64,000 nt of DNA. It comes from a virus (Duplodnaviria; Heunggongvirae; Uroviricota; Caudoviricetes). Positions 37,595 to 55,995 of this stretch are shown piece after piece. Under the pieces are notes generated by a model that did no database searches, was not told the origin of the DNA, and saw only the letters and a program-made list of their open reading frames with translations. The stretch is taken from IMG/VR virus record IMGVR_UViG_3300050026_000241, one strand, 5' to 3'. Position 1 is the first letter of the stretch, and every line of letters begins with the position of its first letter. The position numbers were made by a program, and so were the translations under genes.

Positions 37595-38690
37595 TCACGA
37601 ACCGTGTAAACCGTGTAAACGTCTTGTGTAAACGTCGCCACCGCTACCGGCGACCGTCAGCGGCCCTGTTACTGAACGGATTCCCGTTCGGGAATAGGGC
37701 CGTTTTCATTGCGCAGTGAAATGCGCATTTGTGTAACGCCCGTTAGAAAAGTCAGCCGCGTTTTAGACTATAAGCATCAGTGATACTGGCAGGCTGCGGG
37801 TGGGTGAAGTTGCCGTCAGAGCGACTACAGGAACCGGACATAACCGGACATGCCAATGACATAAACCGGACACGCCAATGAGACAGTTATGGCACTTATG
37901 AGCCATGTTCACGAAACCGGCTTCGGGCATCGGGCGGGTAAAGGCCGGAGCTAAGGGCCAGGTCAGGCTCCGGTTAAATCGAAACCGAAAAGTCAAAACT
38001 TGGCCCTCGCGCGCCACGGTTACTAAGGGCGCGGGCCCTCCCCGGACAGCTTCCGGTGAAAACGGAAACCGATTTTTCAAACTTGGGGAGTTTTTTCTCA
38101 CGGTTAAAATGACCCGGGTGGCCTCCCTCTAACGGGGGTCAGCCACCACCCCTGTCTTGGCCGGTGCTACCGTCACGACCCTTCCGAGCACCCCCGGTCG
38201 CTACATCCCTCGCCCACGGCCCCGCACAGGCGCTCCAGACAGTCGCCTTGGAGTAACCGTCATAACCGGACTCTGGCTGCGCAGTCCCGGCCAGCGGTTT
38301 GCGGGGAGTTTCAAAGCGGCCATTGAAGCGGCCATTGAACCGGCCCTGGCCCCTGGCTTCGCGTAGGACAGGCGAAAACAGCGGGGATAGCCGGGAAGTC
38401 AACCAGCGGATGAAAGCGGCCAAAACAGCGGCCAAAGGCCCTATCAGGGGCTGGTGCGGGGCAGAGTTTGATTGCTTCAAAAACATGGACGCCGGGGAAA
38501 GGTTTTCTATGTCTTCCGGCCTGTTGCGTATCTTAATTATGACAGCCAATTCGCAGAAGTCAAGGATTATTCCAAAGAATCCGGTTGCCGGGCGCGAGTC
38601 GAAGTCAAGCGGGAATCTGAAAATAGTTTTCCGGCTGCGTTTTTGGCGCTTATATTGCGCGCTTTCGCGCGATGTCGAATTCGCCGGCCG
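37595..38690. other. ~1.1-kb repeat-rich noncoding block
   Basis: no credible + strand ORF; internal direct repeats (CGTGTAAAC x3, AACCGGACAT/GCCAATGA x2, GGCCATTGAA x2) and many GC hairpins. Confidence 0.5.
38060..38110 (+). repeat. dispersed noncoding element AAACCGAATTTTTCAAACTTGG...TTTTC..TCACGGTT (copy 1)
   Basis: related copies at ~43950-43995 and ~55930-55995; partial at ~37960-38000. Confidence 0.5.
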
Positions 38691-38694
38691 CGAC

Positions 38695-38722
38695 TTGACT
38701 TCTCCGAACCACATGGTATGAT
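38695..38722 (+). promoter_or_regulatory. sigma70-like promoter cassette
   Basis: leaderless ATG 38729. Confidence 0.6.
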
Positions 38723-38728
38723 TGCAGT

Positions 38729-39040
38729 ATGAGCGAACCAATTTACGCAATACCGGGCACCAGAATCATCGGTGCAAAATTGTCAGTCGGCACGACCCTC
38801 CGGGTCCACGGCTGGATCATGCTGAAAAACCTTGACGAAGGCGATTACGTCATTACGTCGGTCGGTTACTTCTACAACAATCCTTGCTACACCTTTCGCA
38901 AGGCGCGGGGCCGCAAGCGGGTTTGCTGCCACTTTGCCAATGACGTTGACCGTTGCGTCCGCCCGGCCGGCGACATCGACCTTAACAGGATTGAGATATT
39001 GGCCGTTGGCGAGCGGCGGCCGGTCGAAATCCCGGCTTGA
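38729..39040 (+). CDS. hypothetical protein
   Basis: cassette promoter, leaderless. Confidence 0.55.
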   Translation: MSEPIYAIPGTRIIGAKLSVGTTLRVHGWIMLKNLDEGDYVITSVGYFYNNPCYTFRKARGRKRVCCHFANDVDRCVRPAGDIDLNRIEILAVGERRPVEIPA

Positions 39041-39064
39041 CTTTTCTCCGGCACATGGTAGAAT
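39037..39064 (+). promoter_or_regulatory. sigma70-like promoter cassette
   Basis: TTGACT-N16-TGgTAGAAT; leader to 39095. Confidence 0.55.
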
Positions 39065-39094
39065 TGAACATCAATCAAGCAACAGGGAGCAGCA

Positions 39095-39550
39095 ATGTCA
39101 ACCACGAAACTACCGCACGAAACGAAGATTATTCAGTTCGAGCGGGCACACGCGACCGTCATTTTCAAAAACGAGTTGAGCGCCGCGACGGGCAAGCGTA
39201 TACCCCGGCTTTACGTCCAGTGTATCGACCAATATGGCTATCAGCGCGAATGGTCTTTGCAACGCACCCACAAGCCCGGCGATTCCAGCACAACCTACTG
39301 GGAGAGCCACATCTACCAGCACCCCGGCCGCCGTGAGATAACAGAAGTGAGCGATTCGATTGCCGCCCGGTGTATCGGCCGTTTCCTCTATTTGTGTGAG
39401 AATTACCCCACCCTCTTGTTCAACGAAACCGCGATACGGGCGCAGAACGCGCCGAACGGTACGCCGGACGTGCGGCCCCGTTCCGAGGGGTTTGTCCACT
39501 TTGCCGAAGCCCTGCACCGGGGCGCGCGGCCTACCGCGAAAATGCTCTAA
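39095..39550 (+). CDS. hypothetical protein
   Basis: cassette promoter + leader AACAGGGAGCAGCAATG. Confidence 0.55.
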   Translation: MSTTKLPHETKIIQFERAHATVIFKNELSAATGKRIPRLYVQCIDQYGYQREWSLQRTHKPGDSSTTYWESHIYQHPGRREITEVSDSIAARCIGRFLYLCENYPTLLFNETAIRAQNAPNGTPDVRPRSEGFVHFAEALHRGARPTAKML

Positions 39551-39557
39551 GAGCCGC

Positions 39558-39585
39558 TTGACTTTTCTCCGGCAGGATTGAAATA
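39558..39585 (+). promoter_or_regulatory. degenerate cassette copy
   Basis: TTGACT present, -10 region deleted/altered (ggcaggattgaaata); ATG 39587. Confidence 0.3.
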
Positions 39586-39586
39586 A

Positions 39587-39802
39587 ATGGACCCGAACGA
39601 AACCCTATCAAACATCGTCGAATCGCTAGACAATGGCGATTACAATGATGCCCGCGATGCGGCCGAGATTCTAAAATCCTGGCTTAGTCGCAACGGTTGC
39701 CCGCCTATCGGTTGCACGAAAGAGGAAACTTTAGCGTTTTGCGTCAAGGTTCTCCGAAACGCCGCCGCCGTCACCCTAGTTGAAACCTGCATTGGAGAGT
39801 AG
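39587..39802 (+). CDS. hypothetical protein
   Basis: degenerate cassette upstream. Confidence 0.45.
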   Translation: MDPNETLSNIVESLDNGDYNDARDAAEILKSWLSRNGCPPIGCTKEETLAFCVKVLRNAAAVTLVETCIGE

Positions 39803-39817
39803 AAAGAGACAAAACCG

Positions 39818-40375
39818 ATGATCGAATTCATGCCCGAACCAACTTTGATTTTGGAAAACAAAGACGACCTTGCCGCCCTTCTCGACACGAAGCCGGAAGC
39901 CGAAATTCGTTTGCACCGTCACCGTATCAAGAGCCGTTGGCTTATCGGCCTGATCGACGAAATCGCCGCTTCCGGCCGTTACCCCTACAACGCCACGGTG
40001 AACAAGTTGGCTTGCGAGCGCCTGGGCTACCCGCCGAAATCCGAAGCCGAGTATTCGCGTGAGGGCACTGCCCTATCCTGGCTTATTTACAACGCGCAGA
40101 ACTTCCGGCGTAGCGACCAGTTTATCGCGGCCGGCTACACCCCGTTTACGCCCGCCATGCTTGACGAAGCGTACACCATCGGGGCGAAGGTCGAAGTGGC
40201 GGCCGAAACGCTGCTAGGCGGTTCCGCCGTCATCGTCCTAACCCCGAAGGACATCGACGGCAAACTCTACGCCGTGCTGCCGCGCAAGCGGACCCAGCAC
40301 TTGCCGCCGATGGGTCAACCGGCGAAAATCATCAAGGCCGGCAAGCGGGTGAAAAAATCCGTTGCCGCCGCTTGA
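39818..40375 (+). CDS. hypothetical protein
   Basis: 185 aa; co-transcribed. Confidence 0.5.
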   Translation: MIEFMPEPTLILENKDDLAALLDTKPEAEIRLHRHRIKSRWLIGLIDEIAASGRYPYNATVNKLACERLGYPPKSEAEYSREGTALSWLIYNAQNFRRSDQFIAAGYTPFTPAMLDEAYTIGAKVEVAAETLLGGSAVIVLTPKDIDGKLYAVLPRKRTQHLPPMGQPAKIIKAGKRVKKSVAAA

Positions 40376-40399
40376 CTTCTCACCGGCACATGGTATGAT
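40372..40399 (+). promoter_or_regulatory. sigma70-like promoter cassette
   Basis: canonical; leader to 40434. Confidence 0.6.
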
Positions 40400-40433
40400 T
40401 GAGTAAGTTCAAACTACAACAGGGAACAACACA

Positions 40434-40868
40434 ATGATCGAACAGCTAGACCAGATTTTCACGACTGTCAACGTATCGCACGACATTCCTGAGCAGCGAG
40501 TACGCGATTTGCTTTGTTCCGCCTGGGAGGGCGGTAGCAATTACTGGTGCAACTACAAGAGCCGCACCATGTCTATCACCGGCCTGAGCGAAGTCAATCG
40601 GATTCGACGGGAACGGAAAGCGGCCGGAGAAGACTTCTATGTCCATGAGTACCCTTTCATCGACGGGGTTGCCCTGATACTCGAAGTCAATGACGAAGAT
40701 GACCCCCGGCCCCTGACCCTGGACCGCGCCGCGCTGATTCGCGGGTTGCAAGTCATGGCGGAAAAGTACCCCCGCCAATTCCACAATTTTCTGATTGAGA
40801 ATGATGACGCCGAAACCGGCGACACATTCCTGCAATGCTGTCTTTTCGGTGAAACCGTTTACGGCTAA
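40434..40868 (+). CDS. hypothetical protein
   Basis: cassette promoter + full conserved leader. Confidence 0.55.
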   Translation: MIEQLDQIFTTVNVSHDIPEQRVRDLLCSAWEGGSNYWCNYKSRTMSITGLSEVNRIRRERKAAGEDFYVHEYPFIDGVALILEVNDEDDPRPLTLDRAALIRGLQVMAEKYPRQFHNFLIENDDAETGDTFLQCCLFGETVYG

Positions 40869-40924
40869 CCGGCCACAACCCTCCGACCCCTCCAACTCTC
40901 ACAATAGGAACAACAGGAACAACC

Positions 40925-41194
40925 ATGAAAGAAGTAACCGCCAGTTTTAGCGATGCGTTCGATTGCACGAAAATCCGCAAGGTCCGCGTGACGATCGAAA
41001 CCCAGGGCGTTTGTATTCAACCGGAGGGCACCGGCGTTTACGACGGGGCCGATTGCGGCCCGATCCTGGTGGAATTCCAGAACGGCAAGCCGTTCCTTCA
41101 CGTTTGGGCCGACATTAACGAGGATAGCCCCACCCACACCATCGACCTTTCTGGGGCGCTGGAGGCGGCCCGCCGCGAGCCGTTGGAAGTCTAA
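40925..41194 (+). CDS. hypothetical protein
   Basis: AGGAACAACAGGAACAACCATG RBS. Confidence 0.5.
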   Translation: MKEVTASFSDAFDCTKIRKVRVTIETQGVCIQPEGTGVYDGADCGPILVEFQNGKPFLHVWADINEDSPTHTIDLSGALEAARREPLEV

Positions 41195-41208
41195 GCCGAG
41201 ATTCCGGC

Positions 41209-41236
41209 TTGACTTCTCCGATTCACATGCTATGAT
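41209..41236 (+). promoter_or_regulatory. sigma70-like promoter cassette
   Basis: TGcTATGAT; leader to 41271. Confidence 0.6.
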
Positions 41237-41270
41237 TGAGTAGACTTCAATCACAACAGGAAACCAGACA

Positions 41271-41684
41271 ATGAGCAACAAAATCATTACCGTGTCGAAC
41301 CTTGATGAATTCGCCCGCGCCTACGTCGAAGCGGCCTTATGGTCTACCACCGACGAATCGGACGAACAGGGCGGCGAACCAATGGACCAGAATTATGACG
41401 CCTGGGATGTTGACCCGGAAACGCTGAGAGGCATGGCCGCCGACTGTGCCGAGTTCCAAGCGGAAAACGCCGCCGACTTGGCGCTCTACAACGCCCCGCA
41501 ATGGACGGCGGCCGAATTGGGCGGCCACGATTTTTGGTTGACCCGCAACGGCCACGGTTGCGGCTTCTGGGACCGCAATGGTATCCTGCCGGAAGATGCC
41601 GGCGAGCGCCTGACCGCTGCCGCCAAAAAGTACGGGGAAGTATACCTCTATATTTCTGATAGTGGCATGGTTTGCAGTAACTAA
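41271..41684 (+). CDS. hypothetical protein (GHDFWLTRNGHGCGFWD motif)
   Basis: cassette promoter + leader. Confidence 0.55.
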   Translation: MSNKIITVSNLDEFARAYVEAALWSTTDESDEQGGEPMDQNYDAWDVDPETLRGMAADCAEFQAENAADLALYNAPQWTAAELGGHDFWLTRNGHGCGFWDRNGILPEDAGERLTAAAKKYGEVYLYISDSGMVCSN

Positions 41685-41690
41685 TCCGGC

Positions 41691-41718
41691 TTGACTTCTC
41701 CGAATCACATGCTATGAT
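41691..41718 (+). promoter_or_regulatory. sigma70-like promoter cassette
   Basis: leader with (CA)n to 41779. Confidence 0.6.
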
Positions 41719-41733
41719 TGAGTAGACTTCAAT

Positions 41734-41764
<31 letters not shown>

Positions 41765-41778
41765 CAGGGAGCAACACA

Positions 41779-42288
41779 ATGCAGACTTTCATTTACCGTT
41801 GGCAAGAGCGAGCCGGGGTCGAAGGCACCCGGCGGGGCGAAATCGACGGCCCTATTCACGAAATCCGGGGCGATGCCTACGCCCTTTGGACCGTCGCCAA
41901 GCAGCTTGAATTGCCGGTGCGCCCTTTCTGGTCCGAATTCACCGACCTTGACGGCAATGCCGCCGACATCTGGGGCGCCAGTATAGCCGCGAAAACCGAG
42001 CGGCTACGCCCGCCAACGGAGTTGCTTTGGATTCGCATTGGCGATGCCGGCGACTACGCTTCCTTTACCGACCTTGACGCCGCCATTGACGACCTGAACA
42101 TGATGGAAGTGGGCACCGTCGATTATTGGCTTGACGGCGGGGTAGGAATTGGATTCGCTACCTGGAATTACCACGGCCACGATTTTGTTTCATTCTTCTG
42201 GGGCGATGCCGAAGCCAATCTGATTCGCGCCTTGAACGCGGATGAAAAAGCCTACACCGAAAACAACCTAGAAGCGTACCTGAACTAG
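41779..42288 (+). CDS. hypothetical protein
   Basis: cassette promoter; leader contains (CA)~14. Confidence 0.55.
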   Translation: MQTFIYRWQERAGVEGTRRGEIDGPIHEIRGDAYALWTVAKQLELPVRPFWSEFTDLDGNAADIWGASIAAKTERLRPPTELLWIRIGDAGDYASFTDLDAAIDDLNMMEVGTVDYWLDGGVGIGFATWNYHGHDFVSFFWGDAEANLIRALNADEKAYTENNLEAYLN

Positions 42289-42294
42289 ACGCCA

Positions 42295-42519
42295 ATGGAA
42301 ACGACCATCATTCGCGTGCAATCGCACCCCGCCGATGTTTACCACGGTAAGGTATGGTATGGCCCGCGTGACAAGAAGGCCGCCAAGTCCCCCGGCTTTT
42401 CAACCTGGGAAGCGGCCCGCCGTTGGATTTTCAGCCAGCCGAAAACCGGCCGGTTCAAGGCAACACGCCAGTCAACCATCCTGAAAAACGGCACGCTCTT
42501 TACCACATGCTCTGATTGA
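42295..42519 (+). CDS. hypothetical protein
   Basis: 3' end encodes -10/leader-like sequence for next gene. Confidence 0.45.
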   Translation: METTIIRVQSHPADVYHGKVWYGPRDKKAAKSPGFSTWEAARRWIFSQPKTGRFKATRQSTILKNGTLFTTCSD

Positions 42520-42583
42520 GTAGTAACTTAACAACACAACGCAACCGAAGCCCAAACCGGAGGAAAAGAAAGTGGAAACCCCC

Positions 42584-42775
42584 ATGAAGAGCGTCCGCGA
42601 CAAAATCGCCGAGTTGACCCAGGGCGCGAAGTCGGTTTGCGACTTCGACCGCATCGTTTCCAAGGCCGGCGGCCTTGGGGCATTGTGGAAGCAAATCGGC
42701 GGCGACCGCGACGAATTCGCCTACGAATGGGACATGGTGAAAAACTCCATTAAGAAAATGACTAGGTACGATTGA
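42584..42775 (+). CDS. hypothetical protein
   Basis: ATG (alt GTG 42572). Confidence 0.45.
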   Translation: MKSVRDKIAELTQGAKSVCDFDRIVSKAGGLGALWKQIGGDRDEFAYEWDMVKNSIKKMTRYD

Positions 42776-42805
42776 GTAACTTAACAACACAACAGGAACA
42801 CCAGA

Positions 42806-43342
42806 ATGAGCCAGACTGAAAACTATCGTGATCTTGCCGAATCGGACGCCAAGAGCACCGTTAGCAACTTCCGCGATGAAATCGTTGAAATGCTGCTTGA
42901 CGACGGCAAGGCCAGCGATGACCTACTGAACGATTACCCGGGCGGCGACAGTTACCACCACGAAACGCACACTGACAAGTGGTACAACTTGCAGGAAGCG
43001 GCGGCCGTTCTCGACCAGCTTGACAATTTTGAGGAAACCGACAGCGGGCTATGGCAAGGACAAGACATGAAAACCGCCCTGGCGACCTGCGCGGCCTACA
43101 CCTATGCCAATGCGGTCTACTCCGAATGGCATGACCTTATCGGCACAATCAACGACCGGGCCGAAGATATTCTCTCCGATTTTATCACGGAAGAAACCGA
43201 CCTGGAAACCGAGCGTGACGAGCCTCGGACAATGACCGAAGCCGCCCGCACCTGTGCGGCCGAGAAGCAAGCCTTGCTCGATTCGCTGGACATACGCAAG
43301 GCGGACGCCTTGCGAGAAATGGTTGACGAAATCGCAAGCTAG
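42806..43342 (+). CDS. acidic hypothetical protein
   Basis: leader AACAGGAACACCAGAATG. Confidence 0.5.
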   Translation: MSQTENYRDLAESDAKSTVSNFRDEIVEMLLDDGKASDDLLNDYPGGDSYHHETHTDKWYNLQEAAAVLDQLDNFEETDSGLWQGQDMKTALATCAAYTYANAVYSEWHDLIGTINDRAEDILSDFITEETDLETERDEPRTMTEAARTCAAEKQALLDSLDIRKADALREMVDEIAS

Positions 43343-43468
43343 GCCGGCGCGCTAGGGACTGATCGACCGGCGCGCTAGACAAAACAAGAGTGACCCTGTT
43401 GTGTGGCCGGGGCCTGCAAGCATCTACTCACTTGCGGCCCCGGCCCTCTGAATTACCCTGTTGCGATT

Positions 43469-43506
43469 GGCCGGGCAGATCGTTTCCGCCCGGCCTATTT
43501 TTATTT
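43469..43506 (+). terminator. intrinsic terminator candidate
   Basis: GGCCGGGC...GCCCGGCC stem + TATTTTTATTT. Confidence 0.5.
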
Positions 43507-43532
43507 GACTTCTTGCAATCACATGCTATGAT
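43505..43532 (+). promoter_or_regulatory. sigma70-like promoter cassette
   Basis: leaderless ATG 43539. Confidence 0.6.
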
Positions 43533-43538
43533 TTAGGT

Positions 43539-43724
43539 ATGAGTACAATTCAAGCAAAGGATTTAGTCGAGGGTCAAACGGTCGAAACTCGCAAGGGTGT
43601 CAAGACAGTAAAGACCAGCGGCTACCTTAACGAGAAACTTTGGCGGCTGGAATTCACCGACTGGGAAATCTGCCTTTGCCGGCATGACCACCCATTTCCC
43701 ACTACATCGGAGCGACCAGCATGA
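43539..43724 (+). CDS. hypothetical protein
   Basis: cassette promoter, leaderless. Confidence 0.5.
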   Translation: MSTIQAKDLVEGQTVETRKGVKTVKTSGYLNEKLWRLEFTDWEICLCRHDHPFPTTSERPA

Positions 43725-43945
43725 GAGCAAGGTTCTACGGAATCAAAGGGCGATGCGGCTTCGTTCACGCCTGTTGTTTTGACGCCTTTGTAGAGGCCAA
43801 TGCCGTAAGGGATGTGCAAGGCCGCATTGTTCGCCGGCCGCTTGCCGACGCCATTGTCTACACGCTAGGACACGCCGGCAACGGCCCTTGCCTGCATTGC
43901 AAGGAAGTGCTATCGGCCGCCCCAAACACGGCCCGGAGAAATTGA
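43721..43945 (+). CDS. Cys-rich hypothetical protein
   Basis: CGFVHACCF...CLHC. Confidence 0.45.
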   Translation: MRARFYGIKGRCGFVHACCFDAFVEANAVRDVQGRIVRRPLADAIVYTLGHAGNGPCLHCKEVLSAAPNTARRN

Positions 43946-43949
43946 TTCC

Positions 43950-43995
43950 CGATTGAGTAAATTTGGGGAAAATTTTCACACGGTTGCGCGCACCC
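43950..43995 (+). repeat. dispersed noncoding element (copy 2)
   Basis: GTAAATTTGGGGAAAATTTTCACACGGTTGCGCGCACCC. Confidence 0.5.
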
Positions 43996-44083
43996 GCCCC
44001 CGCCTACCCGCCCGCACCCAGGTAATCCGATCAACCCTTAACCTTAGAAAGCCCGCTATGACCCCGAAACCGCAAAATCCGGC

Positions 44084-44111
44084 TTGACTTCTGCCGTTTA
44101 CGTGATATGAT
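44084..44111 (+). promoter_or_regulatory. sigma70-like promoter cassette
   Basis: leader to 44150. Confidence 0.55.
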
Positions 44112-44149
44112 TGAGTAGGTTCACAACGCAACACAACAGGACTACCGCA

Positions 44150-45028
44150 ATGAATGATAATCGAGCCAAGTATCAGGCCCTCCGCAACGCCGGCAAACTG
44201 ACCGGCACAATCGAAGCCGCCGTGAGACTGCGCGACAAGAGAGCCGCCGCGAAGCCCCAAAAAGTTTCTGGCAAGTGGAAGCAAAATCTTCGTGCCAAGT
44301 GGGTCCGTTCAATCCCCCTGGGCAGTAACGACCGCGCCGCCGCCTATGCAATCGGCCGAGAATTGCGCTCGCATATTCGCAACTTTCACGATGTTTCGGC
44401 GAGTATCGAGACGAACAACGGCCGGGGTTGCACGGTCATCGACCGTGACGCCGGCCGGTATGGCGGCCCTTGCACATACCGCAAGATTGAGCATACTATC
44501 TTTGTCACGTCCTACGGCCGCACCGACGGGCGCGTGCTAACCTATCGGTTGTTTACGACCGATAAGACCATCAAGGCCCCCTTCGGCTACCGATGGGGTT
44601 ATGATTCCAACGGTATCAAACTCTACGCCATTGCCCGCCCGGCCGACGATTTTCACCCGGACACTGCCGACTTGGCGGCCGGTAGCAAGCATTGCGTGGA
44701 AAAGCTGAAGCGCAACGCCGAAACCCGGTGCAAGTGCGTAGGTGAAACGAAGCATCAAATTGCATTGATTCGCAAGGCCGAGCGGGAGGGATTGTCTGTC
44801 TGCCTTGCGGACAGCTTGAAAGCCGGCAACTGCCGGGCCGGCACAATCGCATGGGCCAATCGACACGGCTTTTCAAACGGACAGCACTACAAGCCGAGCC
44901 AACTGCTTGCGGACGCCAACGGCGATACGCCGCGCGTGGCCCTGGTGGTAGCGGTAGCGCTACGACGCCACCGCCGCGAAATGGAGCAAGGGTACGCCGT
45001 GCTTGCCGAGCATCTTGACCCCGGCTAA
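44150..45028 (+). CDS. hypothetical protein
   Basis: cassette promoter + long leader (track M... upstream residues are leader). Confidence 0.55.
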   Translation: MNDNRAKYQALRNAGKLTGTIEAAVRLRDKRAAAKPQKVSGKWKQNLRAKWVRSIPLGSNDRAAAYAIGRELRSHIRNFHDVSASIETNNGRGCTVIDRDAGRYGGPCTYRKIEHTIFVTSYGRTDGRVLTYRLFTTDKTIKAPFGYRWGYDSNGIKLYAIARPADDFHPDTADLAAGSKHCVEKLKRNAETRCKCVGETKHQIALIRKAEREGLSVCLADSLKAGNCRAGTIAWANRHGFSNGQHYKPSQLLADANGDTPRVALVVAVALRRHRREMEQGYAVLAEHLDPG

Positions 45029-48706: not shown

Positions 48707-48734
48707 TTGACTTCTGCAAACCACATGGTATAGT
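48707..48734 (+). promoter_or_regulatory. sigma70-like promoter cassette
   Basis: TGgTATAGT; leaderless ATG 48741. Confidence 0.55.
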
Positions 48735-48740
48735 TTCATT

Positions 48741-48920
48741 ATGAGCAACCGTACCGCGCAAGAGATACTAATGGGCCTTGCCCGCCGATGGGCCGCCGAC
48801 GATTGTACCGATCTAGTATTAGATATGCTTGAAAAGGTACTCGACTTGACGCATGAGGATACCTTGCGCGACAACTTCCAAGCCGACATTGAAGAAGAGG
48901 AATCAAAGGAACCGGAATAA
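48741..48920 (+). CDS. acidic small protein
   Basis: cassette promoter, leaderless; 59 aa; approximate. Confidence 0.4.
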   Translation: MSNRTAQEILMGLARRWAADDCTDLVLDMLEKVLDLTHEDTLRDNFQADIEEEESKEPE

Positions 48921-49321: not shown

Positions 49322-49323
49322 AC

Positions 49324-49351
49324 TTGACTTCTCACAACCACATGGTATAGT
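49324..49351 (+). promoter_or_regulatory. sigma70-like promoter cassette
   Basis: identical -10/start context to 48707 copy; leaderless 49358. Confidence 0.55.
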
Positions 49352-49357
49352 TTCATT

Positions 49358-49723
49358 ATGAGCAAGCGAAAACCGAAAACCGAACCGGCTTACGAGCCGC
49401 CCGCGCCCGAGCCGATGAATACGATTGCCGGGGTTCAAGCCGAGTACAATCGTCAATATGAGCGATACGCGGCCGCGCGCAAGGCATGGTATGACGCGAA
49501 CCCCTACGTTCGCGGCGAGAATCGGGTTTATCCTGGCCTCACCATCGACTATGACGGCATGGGCGGGTTGCTTGTCAAGGCGATTCAAGCCGAGTACGGC
49601 TTCTCCGAAGCCCGCGCCGGCGCAGTCTACGGCCTTGCGTATGAGAAAGGCCACTCGTCCTTCAGTGACGTGTTTTGCTACGCTTACGAGTTTGCCGATT
49701 TTGTCAAGGGGTTGCCGGCATAG
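49358..49723 (+). CDS. hypothetical protein
   Basis: cassette promoter, leaderless. Confidence 0.55.
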   Translation: MSKRKPKTEPAYEPPAPEPMNTIAGVQAEYNRQYERYAAARKAWYDANPYVRGENRVYPGLTIDYDGMGGLLVKAIQAEYGFSEARAGAVYGLAYEKGHSSFSDVFCYAYEFADFVKGLPA

Positions 49724-49726
49724 CAA

Positions 49727-49762
49727 CCAGCATGACAACCAGCATGACAACCAGCATGACAG
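49727..49762 (+). repeat. 12-nt tandem repeat CAACCAGCATGA x3 spanning a start codon
   Basis: seen directly. Confidence 0.75.
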
Positions 49763-49971
49763 ACCCGGCCCACACAATCGTTATGGTTGCCAAGACCCAC
49801 AAGGGCTATCTGCCGGGCTACTTGAACCACTACGGGCGGAAGCTAGGGCGGCAACTGTATCGGCAAACCCGGTACGGGGCCGCCACCTATCTCCGTTCCT
49901 TGACCCACGAAGGCCGCCGACTCGTCTACTTTCGGCATGACAACCTTGTGAACCCCGCGCCCGGCCAATGA
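49732..49971 (+). CDS. hypothetical protein with MTTS N-terminal repeats
   Basis: start lies in 12-nt repeat caaccagcatga x3. Confidence 0.4.
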   Translation: MTTSMTTSMTDPAHTIVMVAKTHKGYLPGYLNHYGRKLGRQLYRQTRYGAATYLRSLTHEGRRLVYFRHDNLVNPAPGQ

Positions 49972-50159
49972 ACAACGAAGCCAACAGTTACCTACCCCTT
50001 GACCCGCGACTAGCCGATTGTATGAAACGGACGATACAATTCTGCCGAGCCGCCACCGAAGACCCTACACCGTTCAAGTTGAACACCGCCCGCATGTGGC
50101 TTACCAACTTGGAAGGGTGGCTACCCGAACAACCCTTAACACCCGGAGAATCAGTATGA
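49968..50159 (+). CDS. hypothetical protein
   Basis: 63-aa ORF. Confidence 0.45.
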   Translation: MNNEANSYLPLDPRLADCMKRTIQFCRAATEDPTPFKLNTARMWLTNLEGWLPEQPLTPGESV

Positions 50160-50386
50160 TTATCAAAATCAATAGCGAAGCCGTGGCCGAATTGTTTTTC
50201 GCCGCCCGGCGACTTCTCTACAACACGCCTTACACAACCGCCCTGGCCCCCAGCCTTGACCAGCTTCGCAATGCCTTGGCCGCCTTTGCCCTGGCCCCGC
50301 CCGTCAAGGCCCTGGCCCTGCGCAAGAAGGCCGCCAAGAAGGCCGCCAAGAAGGCCCCGCGCAAGAAATCGAAATCCTGTGCTTGA
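50156..50386 (+). CDS. hypothetical protein with basic KKAAKKAAKKAPRKK tail
   Basis: ATG inside track ORF 50018..50386. Confidence 0.45.
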   Translation: MIIKINSEAVAELFFAARRLLYNTPYTTALAPSLDQLRNALAAFALAPPVKALALRKKAAKKAAKKAPRKKSKSCA

Positions 50387-50410
50387 CTTTCGCGCGGCAC
50401 ATGATAGAGT
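50383..50410 (+). promoter_or_regulatory. sigma70-like promoter cassette
   Basis: TGaTAGAGT; leaderless 50417. Confidence 0.5.
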
Positions 50411-50416
50411 TGTCTT

Positions 50417-50698
50417 ATGAACAAATCAACAGTCGAAGGCAATTACATCGAAAACGGAATCCTCTATAACCGCCTGGGCAGGGTGGTTGACCCCGGTATC
50501 TGCCGACAATACGGATGGGATTGTCCGGTCGGGCAAGCCGCCGCCTATGACAAGTATTGTGAGCGGGTTGCCGCCGAATACCATGCCGCCTGGCGTAATG
50601 CCCCGGTATCACATGAGGAAGCGGCCGAAATGCGGGCCGCCTTCGGCCCCGGGGCGGAGGTTGTCAACGTGTTCACCGGCCGCCGTCATCGCACCTAA
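50417..50698 (+). CDS. hypothetical protein
   Basis: cassette promoter, leaderless. Confidence 0.5.
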   Translation: MNKSTVEGNYIENGILYNRLGRVVDPGICRQYGWDCPVGQAAAYDKYCERVAAEYHAAWRNAPVSHEEAAEMRAAFGPGAEVVNVFTGRRHRT

Positions 50699-50716
50699 AC
50701 GGCCAAAAGTTTCGAC

Positions 50717-50744
50717 TTGACTTCTTGCAATCACATGCTATGAT
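50717..50744 (+). promoter_or_regulatory. sigma70-like promoter cassette
   Basis: leaderless 50751. Confidence 0.6.
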
Positions 50745-50750
50745 TTAGAT

Positions 50751-50969
50751 ATGAGCGACGAACTTGCTATCCTTGACGCCCTGTGGACAACGCTCCGTAT
50801 CCGGTTGCACGGTCCTTTCATCGGCGTAGGATATTTCATTGTGAAAGACCTGGGGGCCTGTGCCGAGAGGATTTGGACCGGGGAAGATTGGGGCCGTGCC
50901 CCGAAATACTACCCCACCTTGCAAGCCGCCTTTGACGACTTGCCTAACATCTGCCGGTTTCTGACTTGA
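50751..50969 (+). CDS. hypothetical protein
   Basis: cassette promoter, leaderless. Confidence 0.5.
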   Translation: MSDELAILDALWTTLRIRLHGPFIGVGYFIVKDLGACAERIWTGEDWGRAPKYYPTLQAAFDDLPNICRFLT

Positions 50970-51001
50970 CTTTCGACTTGACTTTCGACTTGACTTTCGA
51001 C
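50962..51001 (+). repeat. 12-nt tandem iterons TTGACTTTCGAC x3 merging into true -35
   Basis: seen directly. Confidence 0.8.
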
Positions 51002-51029
51002 TTGACTTCTCTCCGGCACATGCTATGAT
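51002..51029 (+). promoter_or_regulatory. sigma70-like promoter cassette preceded by three extra -35 iterons
   Basis: leader to 51065. Confidence 0.6.
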
Positions 51030-51064
51030 TAAGTAGGTTCACAACACAACAGGGAGCAACCGCA

Positions 51065-51493
51065 ATGATTACCGCAATGATTACCGCAAAAGGCCGCCTG
51101 GGCAACCACGACATTGAAGCCGAATGTATCAATCCTGGCGATTGGTTTGGCAAGGTTTGGCTCTTGGAAATCGGTTGCGGTTATAGTTCCGGCTTCTTTG
51201 CCGTCGAAGCCGACTCCGTTACCGATGCCATTGACGAATTTTCAGGCAGCAAGTACGGCCACCTTATCCTGATCGACGAAGCCGATTTTGCCGATTACGT
51301 GGAAGATGGCGAGTTCAACGGTTACACCAACGATGGTGGGCAGCCCTGTGATTTGGACAACGTAATGGTTCACGGCGAAGAGCGCCCCGGCCGTGGCGAG
51401 TATACCCCCTGGAATTGCCGATATTTTGCCGACGATCTTCCGGCCGAAGGCATGACGCCGATTGCCTACTATCGACGAAATGACGAAGAGTAA
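51065..51493 (+). CDS. acidic hypothetical protein
   Basis: MITAMITA from 12-nt duplication. Confidence 0.55.
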   Translation: MITAMITAKGRLGNHDIEAECINPGDWFGKVWLLEIGCGYSSGFFAVEADSVTDAIDEFSGSKYGHLILIDEADFADYVEDGEFNGYTNDGGQPCDLDNVMVHGEERPGRGEYTPWNCRYFADDLPAEGMTPIAYYRRNDEE

Positions 51494-51500
51494 AAATCAC

Positions 51501-51529
51501 TTGACTTCTTGCGGCCACATGCTATTCTT
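51501..51529 (+). promoter_or_regulatory. sigma70-like promoter cassette (variant -10 TATTCT)
   Basis: 17-nt spacer; leader to 51550. Confidence 0.45.
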
Positions 51530-51549
51530 AAACAGAAGGAAACATTGTT

Positions 51550-52041
51550 ATGATAACTAAGGGCAGAATCGTCAACAGCGGTGTGGGCGGGTTTCTCAAC
51601 CCGCCTGGGCACCCGGAGCATACTCATTCGGTCGAAACGGACCTTCGCCGCAAGCCGGAAAACCGGGGTTCAATGTCCCTGAGTTACGCCGTCAAGTCAC
51701 AATGGCTTGACAGCGGCACGTTTGCCGAAGCTATGACCTTGCTATTAGCCTGGGCAGTGAATAAATTGCCCTTGACCGCCCCGGCCGTCAAGGATTGGAT
51801 TCTGCAATGCCTGGGTTACTTCCGGGGTTGCTACAACTTTCGTTTCGGCGGCACGCCGGCAGACAACGAAGCCGGATGGGAGGCGGGCAACCTTACCATC
51901 GACCAGGGTCTTGACCCGATGAAAAACGCCGATTTTCACGCCGGGGTTCACCATATCCGCGAATTCTACCCGGACTACACGCCCCGCGCCGTTGACTTCC
52001 AACGGGCCTACTGGGGTAAACAGCGTCAATCCGCTTTCTAA
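51550..52041 (+). CDS. hypothetical protein
   Basis: cassette promoter + GAAGGAAACATTGTTATG leader. Confidence 0.55.
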   Translation: MITKGRIVNSGVGGFLNPPGHPEHTHSVETDLRRKPENRGSMSLSYAVKSQWLDSGTFAEAMTLLLAWAVNKLPLTAPAVKDWILQCLGYFRGCYNFRFGGTPADNEAGWEAGNLTIDQGLDPMKNADFHAGVHHIREFYPDYTPRAVDFQRAYWGKQRQSAF

Positions 52042-52042
52042 C

Positions 52043-52070
52043 TTGACTTCGCCCCGGCACATGATATGAT
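52043..52070 (+). promoter_or_regulatory. sigma70-like promoter cassette
   Basis: leader to 52103. Confidence 0.6.
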
Positions 52071-52102
52071 TGATTAGTCAACTAACAACGCAAGAGGAAA
52101 CC

Positions 52103-52495
52103 ATGACGACCCGCGACAAGTGCAAGCAACTCCGAATCGAACTCGATACCGCCCTCAAGGCCATTGGCGAAAAGCTGGGCATGACGATTCAAGTAGGCCG
52201 GTCAATGAGTTTCACTGACTCGGCGATCAACATCAAACTCGTTGCGAGCCTCCCGAACGCCACGACCGGCGTAATCGAACCCGTCGAAGCCAAGGACTTC
52301 AAAGCGAACACCTGGAAGTGGGGTCTGGAAGCCAGCGACCTGGGCCGCACCTTCACCCATGCCGGCGACACTTTCGAGATTACCGGAGCAAAGCCGAAAG
52401 CCAGCAAATTCCCTATCCTCGCCAAGCGCGGCGACGGCAAGGGCTACAAGTTTCCGGCCGACTTGATTCGCTTGAAACTTCACCCGGCCGCCTGA
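52103..52495 (+). CDS. hypothetical protein
   Basis: cassette promoter + leader. Confidence 0.55.
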   Translation: MTTRDKCKQLRIELDTALKAIGEKLGMTIQVGRSMSFTDSAINIKLVASLPNATTGVIEPVEAKDFKANTWKWGLEASDLGRTFTHAGDTFEITGAKPKASKFPILAKRGDGKGYKFPADLIRLKLHPAA

Positions 52496-52503
52496 AATCT
52501 GAC

Positions 52504-52531
52504 TTGACTTCTTCAAACCACATGGTATGCT
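52504..52531 (+). promoter_or_regulatory. sigma70-like promoter cassette
   Basis: TGgTATGCT; leaderless 52537. Confidence 0.55.
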
Positions 52532-52536
52532 TGAGC

Positions 52537-52740
52537 ATGTTCAAGAGCTTCTATACGAAAGATCAACTGACAATGCTTCTACTCGATTGGAGGCAACCCC
52601 TCGTCATTCCGAAGGGTAATCAGTCAATCGTTTTGGAGTTCCCGCCTGACCGACAATTCAGCCGATGCCGCTACAATCGGGCCGCGCAGAAATCGACCTA
52701 CGGCAAGCCACTTTACGAAGTCACCCTCTACAACCCCTAG
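52537..52740 (+). CDS. hypothetical protein
   Basis: cassette promoter, leaderless. Confidence 0.45.
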   Translation: MFKSFYTKDQLTMLLLDWRQPLVIPKGNQSIVLEFPPDRQFSRCRYNRAAQKSTYGKPLYEVTLYNP

Positions 52741-52750
52741 AACCCGCACA

Positions 52751-53152
52751 ATGCAAACAGCAAAAATCAGAATGGCACTCACGAAGGGCGAACGAGCCGC
52801 CCGCGATCATGCCGAGAAAAACAGCCGCCTGGGCTTGCCGGCAACGCCGGCGGACGCCCGGCACTTGGCGAACTATCGGCGTAAGATGCACCTATGGCAG
52901 TACGGAAAAGCCGCAATAGGTGCGGCGGCGATAGGCGTCACTGCTATTCTAGCAGCTTTCGCAATGGCAAAATTCGCCGACGAACAGTACAATGCGGCGG
53001 GTCAGAAAGCCCGCGCAGATTTTGAAAAGACACGCAGCGACCAACTCGCTATGGAAGACGCAGCCAGAGCCGAGAAGATAGCGGCCGAAGCCGCTGCCGA
53101 TGACATTGAGTTTAAGTTCCGCCGTTGCCTAGGCTACCGGCCCTTGCCCTGA
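52751..53152 (+). CDS. membrane-associated coiled-coil protein
   Basis: TM AIGAAAIGVTAILAAFAMA. Confidence 0.5.
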   Translation: MQTAKIRMALTKGERAARDHAEKNSRLGLPATPADARHLANYRRKMHLWQYGKAAIGAAAIGVTAILAAFAMAKFADEQYNAAGQKARADFEKTRSDQLAMEDAARAEKIAAEAAADDIEFKFRRCLGYRPLP

Positions 53153-53161
53153 AATTCCAGC

Positions 53162-53189
53162 TTGACTTCTCACCGTCACATGGTATGAT
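53162..53189 (+). promoter_or_regulatory. sigma70-like promoter cassette
   Basis: leader with 21-nt duplication to 53244. Confidence 0.6.
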
Positions 53190-53243
53190 TGATTATCAGT
53201 CAACCAACAGGAAGCAGCAGTCAACCAACAGGAAGCAGCAGTT

Positions 53244-53693
53244 ATGTTTTTCGACGCCACCGAATTGCAAGAAGTCCTGGGCACCGTCACCTGCCCGCAC
53301 ATGAAACGGGCCTTTCGCAACCGAAGCCCTATCACGGTTTCCCTCTGGAATCGGGCCGCTTTCAAGTTGACCGGCGACCACTATAACGGCGGCGCGATCT
53401 ATGCCGCTTGTAGCCGGTATTGCAGCAAAATGGGAGTTTTCGACGGCGGCAAAATGACACCCGGCAACTGGCAAGAGATTGCCGGCAAACTGCCTGGGTT
53501 TATTGCGGACCCGCCCGAATTGGCCCTGAGCCGCTACAGGTACGAAGTGCGCCACGGCCTGACGGACAGCCGGCAAGACAGCGATTACCCGGCCGGGAAA
53601 TTCCGGCTTGACTTTTCCCCGGCACATGTATATAGCTTGATTAAGTTAAATCTGTTCCCCGGCAGGGAACAAACCGACAAGAGGATATTATGA
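53244..53693 (+). CDS. hypothetical protein
   Basis: leader has 21-nt duplication; 3' end encodes next promoter (true stop may be earlier only if sequence differs). Confidence 0.5.
   Translation: MFFDATELQEVLGTVTCPHMKRAFRNRSPITVSLWNRAAFKLTGDHYNGGAIYAACSRYCSKMGVFDGGKMTPGNWQEIAGKLPGFIADPPELALSRYRYEVRHGLTDSRQDSDYPAGKFRLDFSPAHVYSLIKLNLFPGREQTDKRIL
53609..53636 (+). promoter_or_regulatory. sigma70-like promoter cassette inside upstream CDS
   Basis: TGtATATAG; leader with small hairpin to 53690. Confidence 0.5.
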
Positions 53694-54151
53694 GACTTAA
53701 CGCATCGTCCGCCGAAATCGTAAAAGTTCTACGGCGTTACGGCTATGACGTTTCCTTCCCCGTCGAAATCGACTTGCAAGAGTATCAGGCGAAGGTCACC
53801 CTGACCGGCAACCGGCGCGCCCTTGTATCGAAGAACGATCAAGGCGGATGGGTAATGGAATACGCGAAAATTTACCCGGACAAGTTGACCTATCACGATC
53901 ATCTTTGCATCTACAACGCCCTCACCCGCGAGGGCGTGCGCCTTATGGCCCTCTGGTATGACAGCCTATGCGAGCCGGCTCTACGCGATAAGGCCGCCGA
54001 GTATTCGGCAGACTTGAACCAGAATAATTATCTCAAGTGCAAGGTGGAACGGCTATTGAAAGCCGAGCGCAACCGGCAACTTGCCGCCGAGCGAGCCGAG
54101 CAAGCCGCCGCCCTGAAATCTGACTTGACTTCTTCAAACCACATGGTATGA
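53690..54151 (+). CDS. hypothetical protein
   Basis: internal cassette promoter; 3' end encodes the next cassette promoter. Confidence 0.5.
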   Translation: MRLNASSAEIVKVLRRYGYDVSFPVEIDLQEYQAKVTLTGNRRALVSKNDQGGWVMEYAKIYPDKLTYHDHLCIYNALTREGVRLMALWYDSLCEPALRDKAAEYSADLNQNNYLKCKVERLLKAERNRQLAAERAEQAAALKSDLTSSNHMV

Positions 54152-54152
54152 T
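54125..54152 (+). promoter_or_regulatory. sigma70-like promoter cassette
   Basis: near-identical to 52504 copy; ATG 54161. Confidence 0.6.
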
Positions 54153-54160
54153 TGAGAACT

Positions 54161-54508
54161 ATGAAACTCTTTCGCCCTTACACCAGCGTCAAGCCCACCC
54201 TCGCAACGGGCGGGGCCTGTTACAAACTGACCGAAGCCGAGTTACGCCGGCTCGTGCCGAAGGCCGCCGCCGATGACATCATGGCCGCCGCCAACAGCCG
54301 CGAGCCGGGCCAATGGAGCAAGGAAACCGTTTCCTACCCCTTGAACCGCCCCGGCACCGTTACCGTGCAAAACGTCGAATTCTACGGCGGAGAAAACTTT
54401 GGGCAAGCCTACGCTTTCCCGGCCGAAATCCGGCACAATACGACGCAATCGGCTTTTGCCGCCTGTGTCAACCGCCTGCGCATACCCCTCCGTCCCCTCA
54501 ACTACTAG
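54161..54508 (+). CDS. hypothetical protein
   Basis: cassette promoter, short leader. Confidence 0.5.
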   Translation: MKLFRPYTSVKPTLATGGACYKLTEAELRRLVPKAAADDIMAAANSREPGQWSKETVSYPLNRPGTVTVQNVEFYGGENFGQAYAFPAEIRHNTTQSAFAACVNRLRIPLRPLNY

Positions 54509-54526
54509 CCCTGACTCGACGCCGCC

Positions 54527-55090
54527 ATGCAAAACAAAACCATCGCCAAGAAGGTAGACGAAATCGAACGACAGATTAACACCGGCCGTTCTGCCCTGCA
54601 CGCGCCAACGGGCAAGAAGGCCGATTCCGCAATGTTTGACGCCCAGCGTTACGCTATCGGCTTTTCGTACCGGGCAAGAGAAGGCCACCTTACACCGAAG
54701 GGCTTGATTATCAACGCGAACCGTCTAGCCCGCCTGATTGCCGCCGCCCGCCCCACCGTTCCCGCTATCGACGGTATCGCCCTTAACGCCCTTACCCGCG
54801 CCCAAATGGCCGCCAACGCCCTTGCCGCCGCCTTGCTACCGGCCCCGGCCCCGGCAGTAAGCGGGCCGGCGAAACAAGCGACAAAACGACCGACTATGAA
54901 TCAAAACGAATTCATTGTCAAGGCCGATGCCGCGAAAGATCAAGCCCAGGTTTACTTTCGCAACCGGCGTTTGACCCTCCGGCAGTACGGTTGCATACTC
55001 CGTAACATCGGAGCAACCGTCAAGAAGCACGAAACCGAATCGGCCCCGGCAGAAAGCCGCCTTGCCGAGATTTTGCAAAAGTTGACTTGA
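54527..55090 (+). CDS. hypothetical protein
   Basis: 187-aa ORF. Confidence 0.5.
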   Translation: MQNKTIAKKVDEIERQINTGRSALHAPTGKKADSAMFDAQRYAIGFSYRAREGHLTPKGLIINANRLARLIAAARPTVPAIDGIALNALTRAQMAANALAAALLPAPAPAVSGPAKQATKRPTMNQNEFIVKADAAKDQAQVYFRNRRLTLRQYGCILRNIGATVKKHETESAPAESRLAEILQKLT

Positions 55091-55114
55091 CTTCTCCCCG
55101 GCACATGGTATGAT
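55087..55114 (+). promoter_or_regulatory. sigma70-like promoter cassette (doubled -35)
   Basis: GTTGACTTGACT; leader to 55151. Confidence 0.6.
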
Positions 55115-55150
55115 TGAATATCTAACAGAATATCTAACAGGGAGCAACAC

Positions 55151-55528
55151 ATGACCGCCGACGAATACAAAGCATACGAAGCCGCCGTCGCCAAGTTCTT
55201 TTTCCTTGAGGGAGTCACGAATCTCTCAACCGGGCATTACCGTTGCCCGAATTGCAGCACCCCGGAACGGGATGTCGAATTCGACGACAACGGTATCTGC
55301 CCAGAATGTGGCGCTGATCGGGAAATCCTGAACGAGTCGAGTTTCTCATGGCGACGTTGCGATTGTTGCAACCGGCCCCTGGGCGGGGACCGGGAATTTG
55401 CAACCGGCTACAACCCCACAACGCGCGAGATTCAGGAATATCACATCTGCACCGATTGTGTCTACTTTGCCGAGTACGGCCGCCTTGACGATATGACCAT
55501 GATGAAAGTGGAGGAAAGCAAGCAATGA
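55151..55528 (+). CDS. zinc-finger-rich hypothetical protein
   Basis: CPNC, CPECG, CDCCN, CTDC. Confidence 0.55.
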   Translation: MTADEYKAYEAAVAKFFFLEGVTNLSTGHYRCPNCSTPERDVEFDDNGICPECGADREILNESSFSWRRCDCCNRPLGGDREFATGYNPTTREIQEYHICTDCVYFAEYGRLDDMTMMKVEESKQ

Positions 55529-55719
55529 GCAAATGGCAATTATTCAGCCTGTTAGCCGATGCCGACGCCCGGCCCCGGCACTTTACCGATAACAACGGGG
55601 TTCAATACTTTGGACTTCTGCAATCGGTAGCAAGGGAGAGCGGTAACGGTTCTTCCTTTAATGTCACCGTTGCAAATCAATCGGGTTGTGCCACATTCCA
55701 TTTAAGAACGGTTGACTAA
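55525..55719 (+). CDS. hypothetical protein
   Basis: 64-aa ORF. Confidence 0.45.
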   Translation: MSKWQLFSLLADADARPRHFTDNNGVQYFGLLQSVARESGNGSSFNVTVANQSGCATFHLRTVD

Positions 55720-55934
55720 TGAATTGCATCTATTGCAACGCCGTAGTTGCCGATGGCAACCTTGAACGGCACGCGGAACAAAGCGCCCTGTGCGCCCGTA
55801 TGGCCCTGGCTTTCATCCGTTCGATTCCTACCGGGCACGCCGACATCGACGGTTCTTTCAGCCGCGAGGATAAGGCTGGGGCAATCCGGCGAAGCCGGGC
55901 ACGTCTAGCGAAAGCATTGGCGGCCCCGGCGTAA
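55719..55934 (+). CDS. hypothetical protein
   Basis: CIYC N-terminus. Confidence 0.45.
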   Translation: MNCIYCNAVVADGNLERHAEQSALCARMALAFIRSIPTGHADIDGSFSREDKAGAIRRSRARLAKALAAPA

Positions 55935-55995
55935 CTCCGGTAAAATCGAAAACCGAATTTTCAAACTTTGGCCCTTTTCCTTCACGGTTGCGCAC
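55930..55995 (+). repeat. dispersed noncoding element (copy 3)
   Basis: CGAAAACCGAATTTTCAAACTTTGGCCCTTTTCCTTCACGGTTGCGCACACCC. Confidence 0.5.

Follow-up and report, generated by a model that had tools for sequence, protein, structure and literature searches.

A bipartite repeated element in an uncultured phage as a candidate promoter for a phage-encoded sigma factor

What does a sequence of about 55 bases do when it recurs, always in the same orientation, between the genes of a phage and in stretches that seem to hold no genes? The question is raised by a 64,000-nucleotide (nt) stretch of the IMG/VR virus record IMGVR_UViG_3300050026_000241 (Caudoviricetes), which was analysed as a whole and is called the window here. 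The window seems to cover one part of the large genome of a lytic phage, with all its convincing genes on the plus strand and a G+C content of ~55%. The first-pass annotation of this DNA had offered three readings of the element: a rho-independent-like attenuator, a DNA site bound by a protein, or a small RNA gene. The reading favoured here, at roughly even odds, is that the elements form a minor second class of promoters, continued by a C-rich leader, which would be read by a phage sigma factor of the extracytoplasmic function (ECF) type encoded by the open reading frame (ORF) at 28601-29185. The candidate promoters would coexist with the sigma-70-type cassettes that precede nearly all genes from 38.7 to 63.5 kb.

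A family of bipartite elements

The repeats form a genuine family with more members than first noted. Related sequences had been reported at three sites, with a partial copy near 37960; these are confirmed as copies B, C and D and the degenerate copy A, respectively (Table 1). Wider scanning adds a variant copy, E1, within the window and two further copies, E2 and F, past its end. The latter two are taken from L025 and L026, which are other assemblies of the window phage and in which E1 is followed by its tandem duplicate E2, by the canonical copy F and then by long iteron arrays. Copies A and B also lie in tandem, with A 84 nt upstream of B. The repeat search placed C and D in one family with B (family D17), at 69% and 80% identity, respectively. 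A degenerate 37-nt pattern, CCGANNNNNYAAANNTKGGSNNNNNNNNNNCACGGTT, has four matches, which are exactly A, B, C and D, and none in any shuffled sequence, and a 21-nt core allowing up to three mismatches is found twice against an expectation of zero. Copy A is supported in addition by an nhmmer profile (E 2.4e-10), and the profile search places every copy on the plus strand, which is the gene strand.

The same profile search, which covered the window and 5.6 kb on its upstream side, found no copies beyond these. Outside this phage, the searches of IMG/VR with two DNA patterns and of GTDB genomes with a DNA pattern returned chance matches only and no relatives, and the homologs of the 292-amino-acid (aa) gene that follows copy C belong to unrelated phages from which the element is absent. 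A scan of metagenomes yielded three true relatives and two chance matches. The three contigs (L018, L019 and L021) represent one phage, 80-91% identical to and syntenic with positions 42.8-47.3 kb of the window, and they carry an ortholog of copy C, designated R, which is included in all comparisons of eight copies below.

Alignment of the eight copies leaves 15 invariant columns, including the runs CCGA and C.CGGTT. Since the similarity extends well past short A/T-rich strings, to which an accidental family might have been confined, the doubt that the first-pass annotation had attached to its own observation can be set aside. The element is bipartite and its spacing is fixed, copies A, B, C, D and R all conforming in strict register to CCGA-N6-AAAYTT-N14-CACGGTT. 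The distance from CCGA to CACGGTT is 26 nt in seven of the eight copies and 25 nt in F, and the spacer between AAACTT and CGGTT measures 16 nt in four copies (B, C, D and R) and is one nucleotide shorter, at 15 nt, in A and F. Farther upstream lies a CCGG box at a variable distance of 10-12 nt, separated from the rest by short runs of A and of T. The AAC-containing, -35-like box AAACTT is present in five copies (A, B, D, F and R); it reads AAATTT in C and is replaced by GGACTC in E1 and E2, which keep CCGA-N26-CACGGTT. Comparison of C with its ortholog R shows substitutions in two places, in the middle of the spacer and in the interval from CCGA to the -35-like box; GTAAAyTTGGGGA and CACGGTTGCGCG are unchanged, as is the C-rich tract CACCCGCCCCCGCCTRCCCGCCCGCACCCAGG farther downstream. 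The sequences AACCG and CGGTT also form an inverted pair, with their cores 33 bp apart.

With respect to the neighbouring genes, copy D begins 2 nt past the stop codon of the gene at 55719-55934, and the upstream half of copy C contains the stop codon (43943-43945) of the gene before it. The description of the element as noncoding has to be qualified at this point, because the upstream halves of C and of its ortholog overlap the 3' end of the preceding ORF.

Table 1. Positions of the element copies and of the associated features in the window.
Feature	Coordinates	Strand	Remarks
Copy A, degenerate	37968..38021	+	1-nt deletion in upstream half; G+C-rich spacer; CCGA, AAACTT and CACGGTT kept
Copy B	38052..38105	+	CCGA 38069-38072; -35-like AAACTT 38079-38084; CACGGTT 38099-38105
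Copy C	43932..43985	+	-35-like AAATTT 43959-43964; CACGGTT 43979-43985
Copy D	55936..55989	+	-35-like AAACTT 55963-55968; CACGGTT 55983-55989
Copy E1, variant	63765..63817	+	ATCGAAACCGA-N26-CACGGTT in register; GGACTC replaces AAACTT
C-rich leader of copy C, conserved	43986..44087	+	GCGCGCACCCGCCCCCGCCTACCCGCCCGCACCCAGG...; ends in 9-codon remnant ORF, ATG 44058, stop 44085-44087
C-rich short leader of copy D	55990..56016	+	GCGCACACCCACCCACCCAGGCTAATT; reaches ATG of next gene
81-aa basic, proline-rich gene after D	56017..56262	+	without own sigma-70 cassette; 94-aa homolog in relative
ECF-type sigma factor gene, 194 aa, regions 2 and 4	28601..29185	+	Pfam in homologs, PDB profile, fold search, PHROGs
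Gene-free, iteron-rich region, 1.3 kb	37369..38690	.	holds A and B; AACCG/CGGTT 15 per kb vs 3.3 window-wide

The attenuator and the small RNA gene would both require a structured RNA, a reading that is very improbable and largely refuted already. The only local indication in its favour is a weak 5-bp hairpin in copy B (TTCCG-GTGAAAA-CGGAA followed by ATTTTT), flagged by the terminator scan; hairpin and T-run are missing from A, C, D and F, and no G+C-rich hairpin with a T-run common to the copies was found. Terminator-like sites in the region stand at shuffle expectation (31 vs 28.4), and copies A-D fold like their shuffles (z from -0.66 to +0.96) with no common structure. RNAalifold on the eight copies returns a single pairing, the invariant 5-bp AACCG/CGGTT, at -2 kcal/mol and with no compensatory changes; where the left arm differs, in C and R, the right arm does not follow. 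An apparent covariation in A, B and C, in a stem between the upstream flank and the TTGGSSS segment of the spacer, was rejected, as this complementarity does not rise above that of shuffles (p = 0.06-0.86, Fisher-combined ~0.2). Rfam has no match for the copies or for the 585 nt downstream of B, and this downstream sequence is no better folded than its shuffles (z = +0.73).

A candidate promoter class and an ECF-type sigma factor

Of the functions first proposed, the site for a DNA-binding protein is the one that is retained, in the more specific form of a candidate promoter. The fixed spacing of the two boxes, the common orientation along the gene strand, the position before genes and the presence of a sigma factor gene together argue for recognition as double-stranded DNA, most likely by a sigma-containing polymerase, and hence for a promoter over an element that acts at gene ends. 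Counted in favour of this reading is the fact that copy D and the ortholog R precede genes devoid of the sigma-70-type cassette that is otherwise nearly ubiquitous. The first-pass annotation had stated that each copy precedes such a cassette; this is true of C (cassette at 44084) and fails for D, whose gene has no cassette of its own, and for B, which is followed by ~590 gene-free nucleotides. Between 38.7 and 63.5 kb, only about five intergenic gaps of at least 40 nt lack a cassette, and D fills one of them.

The cassettes themselves form a conspicuous feature of the window. From 38690 to 63500 there are ~45 near-identical copies of the arrangement TTGACTTCT-N7-CACATGGTATGATTGAG, with an extended -10 box and CA-rich leaders, amounting to almost one per gene (for example at 44084-44111 and 56236-56263), and a second spacer variant, GAAAAGGATGG, is used to the left of 36.5 kb. 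They appear in the repeat search as families of 28-31 copies each, and promoter-like sites number 39 against 9.7 expected.

The second component of the proposed system is the product of ORF 28601-29185, which, from comparisons of sequence and of a predicted structure, is an ECF-type sigma factor. In a Pfam scan of 136 ORFs, the one match to Sigma70_r4_2 was traced to this ORF; the ORF itself scores 21.8 bits, below the cutoff of 25.7. Eight homologs with 50-81% identity strengthen the assignment, since within the resulting family of nine Sigma70_r4_2 is detected in eight members, Sigma70_ECF in six and Sigma70_r2 in three (best E 1.5e-8). A profile of the family searched against the PDB retrieves the ECF factor SigK first (4nqw, full length, E 1.7e-4), followed by SigW, region 2 of SigC and SigL. 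The AlphaFold model (mean predicted local distance difference test, pLDDT, of 78.9) has ECF sigma factors as its top Foldseek matches throughout (SigL, SigH, SigK and sigma-E, probability 1.00), region 2 of sigma-E alone superposes on it with a template modelling (TM) score of 0.72-0.73 at ~3 Å, and the PHROGs label is 'RNA polymerase sigma factor'. A protein-based search of IMG/VR for the sigma factor returned nothing. One homolog, 77% identical, comes from Ga0074046, and the relative that carries R comes from Ga0074044 and Ga0074045; the consecutive numbers suggest that both derive from the same sample series. The next ORF after the sigma gene (29182-29478) matches DUF4326 / phrog_464.

Copy D serves to describe how such a promoter might be organised. 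An UP-like stretch of A/T tracts that includes the CCGA box (55936-55962) would be followed by AAACTT as the -35 box, by a spacer of 16 nt, often with a T-run, and by CGGTT, within CACGGTT, as the -10 box; transcription would start ~6-8 nt farther on, in GCGCACA, and a C-rich, G-poor leader would extend from the start site to the ATG. The elements would be read by the host core RNA polymerase equipped with the ECF-type sigma factor. As the sigma gene lies behind a sigma-70-type cassette, the host sigma-70 would make the phage sigma factor first, which would then activate the few genes without cassettes and also drive transcription into two gene-free, iteron-rich regions with tandem copies (A-B and E1-E2-F). 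The binding of the elements by the phage sigma factor, the start position and the timing can be inferred from this arrangement, and the link between factor and sites is circumstantial.

Regarding the two boxes, the -35 box of ECF promoters generally contains AAC, in many cases next to a T-tract, and CGT is the common core of their -10 box (PMC5758882). The invariant -10-like box C.CGGTT includes CGG and GTT and no CGT; ECF groups differ in their -10 motifs. Promoters of the E. coli sigma-E (RpoE/ECF02) have the form GGAACTT-N16-TCAAA, and the elements resemble this type in the AAC-containing -35 box followed by TT, the 16-nt spacer, the short -10 box with G and C, and the A/T-rich upstream DNA. 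They differ from it in the -10 box, which is CGGTT and not CGT or TCAAA, in the invariance of CCGA at about -43 and in the GGACTC of two copies. Consensus forms for sigma-54, sigma-28, sigma-32, integration host factor (IHF) and T7-like promoters were compared by eye and do not fit, nor does the sigma-70 consensus, for which D alone has a chance TTGGCG-18-TAAAAT. A promoter on the opposite strand was considered and rejected.

Several observations weigh against the proposed promoter function. The -10 box departs from the CGT core common among ECF promoters, and the strictest conservation resides in CCGA (~-43) and CGGTT, in contrast to a -35 box that varies (C, E1 and E2). The inverted AACCG...CGGTT is at the same time the core of the iterons around A and B, a fact that would suit a distinct DNA-binding protein just as well. 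The sigma gene itself has no copy in front of it, although many ECF sigma factors autoregulate; the element is absent from six relative contigs that bear the sigma gene; and no copy was found at positions 1-36 kb or in the 5.6 kb upstream of the window. The probability of the promoter reading is put at about 0.5 in view of the unusual -10 box and of a -35 box whose conservation falls short of that of CCGA and CGGTT.

The main rival follows from the clustering of copies in two iteron-rich, gene-free regions, and supposes a composite site for an AACCG-binding phage protein, which might be a repressor, a replication initiator or a protein of partition or packaging. Such a protein would contact the inverted AACCGA/CGGTT at a distance of 33 bp, with intrinsically bent A/T-tract DNA between them; dispersed copies would serve as operators or roadblocks, and clustered copies as an origin or a packaging region. 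This is a possible explanation, though it is judged rather unlikely. It accounts for CCGA and CGGTT being the sole invariant runs in the eight copies and for the maintenance of N26 in E1 and E2 after the loss of AAACTT, and it agrees with the ~4.5-fold enrichment of AACCG/CGGTT at 37.5-38.5 kb, where these motifs form iterons such as AACCGTGTAA (two units) and ATAACCGGACA (three units), with the ACAACCGTTATA-type iterons after copy F, and with the location of five of the seven copies of this phage in two gene-free, repeat-rich regions that have an opening box in common. However, a symmetric site would not need the single orientation observed for all copies, substitutions in the left arm of C and R (TCCCGA and ATCCGA) are not accompanied by any in the right arm, and no candidate for the binding protein has been identified. 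The position of D and of the ortholog of C before genes without cassettes and with conserved leaders is also left unexplained. The two readings are compatible with each other.

Gene junctions, leaders and gene-free regions

The junctions downstream of C and D provide comparative evidence on what the candidate promoters would express. In L018 and L019, an ATG located 85 nt past CACGGTT opens ORFs of 73 and 97 aa, respectively, and no cassette is present. In the window, an inserted sigma-70 cassette with the 292-aa gene truncates the original ORF to nine codons, and only the first four codons are common to this remnant and the two ORFs of the relatives. Comparison of window positions 44058-45028 with L018 and L019 reveals a mosaic junction after the fourth codon (ATGACCCCGMAAC), beyond which three related phages have three different genes. 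Element, leader and start thus act together as a conserved 5' unit with exchangeable cargo, as would be expected of a 5' expression module.

At the D locus, the element and its 27-nt leader (55935-56016) constitute an 82-nt block that is absent from a relative represented by L023 and L024 (77% protein identity), in which the 77-aa gene and the homolog of the 81-aa gene overlap (ATGA). Since these contigs lack D and keep the homolog, D and its leader can be regarded as an 82-nt insertion-deletion module, and the ORF at 56017-56262 as a real gene.

The same junctions lend themselves to two further explanations, both of which are quite improbable. According to the first of them, the element would be a module for factor-dependent termination or antitermination at the ends of genes, in which Rho would load on the C-rich tract and downstream genes would be expressed by read-through. 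The layout recalls the nutR-tR1 region of lambda, where a conserved element just past a stop codon is followed by a C-rich, G-poor tract. Indeed, a stop codon lies at, or a few nucleotides from, the start of both C and D, C-rich, G-poor tracts follow C, D, R and F, and intrinsic terminators are not enriched in spite of the density of promoters in the region. Unlike in lambda, neither a boxB-type hairpin nor any other conserved hairpin was found among the copies. Leaders rich in CA or in C are also found after the sigma-70 cassettes, which makes them look like the general style of 5' untranslated regions in this phage. Furthermore, the relative without D couples the flanking genes translationally, and insertion of a pure terminator between them would shut off the gene behind it. 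Tandem copies in gene-free DNA also fit this reading poorly.

According to the second, the element would be a recombination linker or mobile mini-module, devoid of a regulatory role and kept for the exchange of gene cassettes. Such a linker could leave behind what is seen at D, which is present in the window phage and missing from the relative, and at C, where element, leader and first codons are shared by the window, L018 and L019 and lead into three different genes. Nevertheless, terminal inverted repeats or target duplications common to the copies were not found, and the strict spacing and box conservation among paralogs that are only 69-80% identical favour selection on a function of the sequence.

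Outside the gene junctions, copies occur in two gene-free regions. The first of them, which may be an origin, holds A and B (Table 1) and contains iterons of AACCGTGTAA near 37600, of ATAACCGGACA at 37832-37870 and of GCGGCCATTGAA (two units) near 38315. The only sigma-70 cassette on the minus strand (38563-38536) is found here and is aimed at B and A; its transcript would be G-rich. The ~590 nt after B are C-rich and without a convincing ORF, and the ORFs they contain score as non-coding. A box of ~60-100 nt (CTGATCGACCGGAGCGC...GGAAAACCRGAATTTGTTGGCGCGCYAGGCG, with GGCGCGCC palindromes) lies directly after a gene end at 37376-37472 and again at 63581-63638, and in this way opens both gene-free regions.

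The second region reaches the end of the window, where positions 63829-64000 consist of CCCCG repeats and ~100 C. The poly-C run probably arose in sequencing or assembly, as an artefact at a repeat; L025 and L026 diverge from the window at ~63829 and continue into E2, F and iterons. Dense iterons occupy L025 2290-2619 (ACAACCGTTATA-type, and GACCGGCACAATCGTTAC units with GCTCTGACCGCGAGCCGTCGTAGCCGCC), and three independent assemblies break there, so this segment may be a genome end or an origin.

A more far-reaching proposal, which is improbable as it stands, unites both settings. The element would be a portable promoter-leader cassette with a double use, in which single copies would enter and leave gene junctions and rewire individual early genes to the sigma factor of the phage, and tandem arrays would drive transcription into iteron-rich, strand-skewed DNA and thereby trigger origins or the processing of genome ends. 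CCGA and CGGTT would be shared by the polymerase and an iteron-binding protein, and the sigma switch would in this manner be coupled to the start of replication.

Relation to known systems and significance

The window phage has no close cultured counterpart in the comparisons made. Megablast and blastn detect no DNA similarity to cultured phages, tblastn with the Thg1-like and exonuclease proteins finds no close relative, and protein matches to cultured phages are distant only. Several metagenomes hold near-identical contigs, and the longest contig in the protein cluster table measures 97,254 nt. Neither tRNA genes nor Rfam matches were found in the window. Other features of the window are a TnpB-like ORF at 26392-27726 (Cas12f1-like TNB domain, E 1.1e-4; phrog_506 transposase, E 5.7e-23), a coding 12-nt tandem repeat, AAGACGGTCGAG, in six units at 28400-28489, and three 58-nt repeats at the starts of adjacent ORFs (13211-13889). 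A cassette and a gene start are duplicated with 98% identity (36143-36225 and 36489-36571), four units of CGACTTGAGAAT stand just upstream of a cassette at 62117-62176, and GATTACT is repeated three times at 63343-63365.

Among known systems, phages that depend on the host polymerase and add a sigma factor of their own offer the closest parallel. In the lytic phages phiEco32 and 7-11, strong sigma-70 promoters act at the start, and six and ~10 phage-sigma promoters, respectively, are served by a small sigma factor that the phage encodes (PMC4331800). The window phage would be similar in having few phage-specific promoters scattered between genes, strong sigma-70 promoters that act first and its own sigma factor. 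It differs in the form of the promoter, which in those phages is a single -10-like motif of 9-12 nt (TAATGTATA / TGATGT) and here is a bipartite sequence of ~55 nt with an upstream box and a leader, and in that the sigma gene of those phages has a phage-specific promoter, none being seen before the sigma gene here.

Tandem phage-specific promoters in gene-free DNA have a counterpart in T7, where phiOL and phiOR lie near the genome ends and the tandem phi1.1A and phi1.1B at the primary origin. As in T7, the tandem copies described here occupy gene-free, repeat-rich DNA and exist beside copies that precede genes, the status of these regions as origin or end being inferred. T7 differs in its single-subunit polymerase and in its 23-bp promoters.

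A comparison can also be drawn with the stoperators of cluster A mycobacteriophages (the sites of L5 gp71), which are sequences of 13-14 bp present in 20-30 or more copies per genome in temperate phages that encode the repressor. Both types of repeat are asymmetric, occupy short intergenic gaps and adopt one orientation relative to transcription. The present family differs from stoperators in comprising seven copies of ~55 nt, and a repressor has not been identified.

That phages may carry their own sigma factor is already well established, and nothing known would be overturned by the promoter function favoured here. If it is true, an uncultured lineage with a genome of ~97 kb gains a two-tier programme of transcription, in which ~45 sigma-70 cassettes would be followed by a few promoters of an ECF-type sigma factor. 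It would also provide an orthogonal pair of sigma factor and promoter, with a defined promoter of 55 nt that might be used as a genetic part. For the evolution of these phages, it would mean that promoter modules are gained and lost at single gene junctions between close relatives. Finally, the tandem copies in iteron-rich, gene-free DNA raise the possibility that the sigma switch is connected with replication or packaging.

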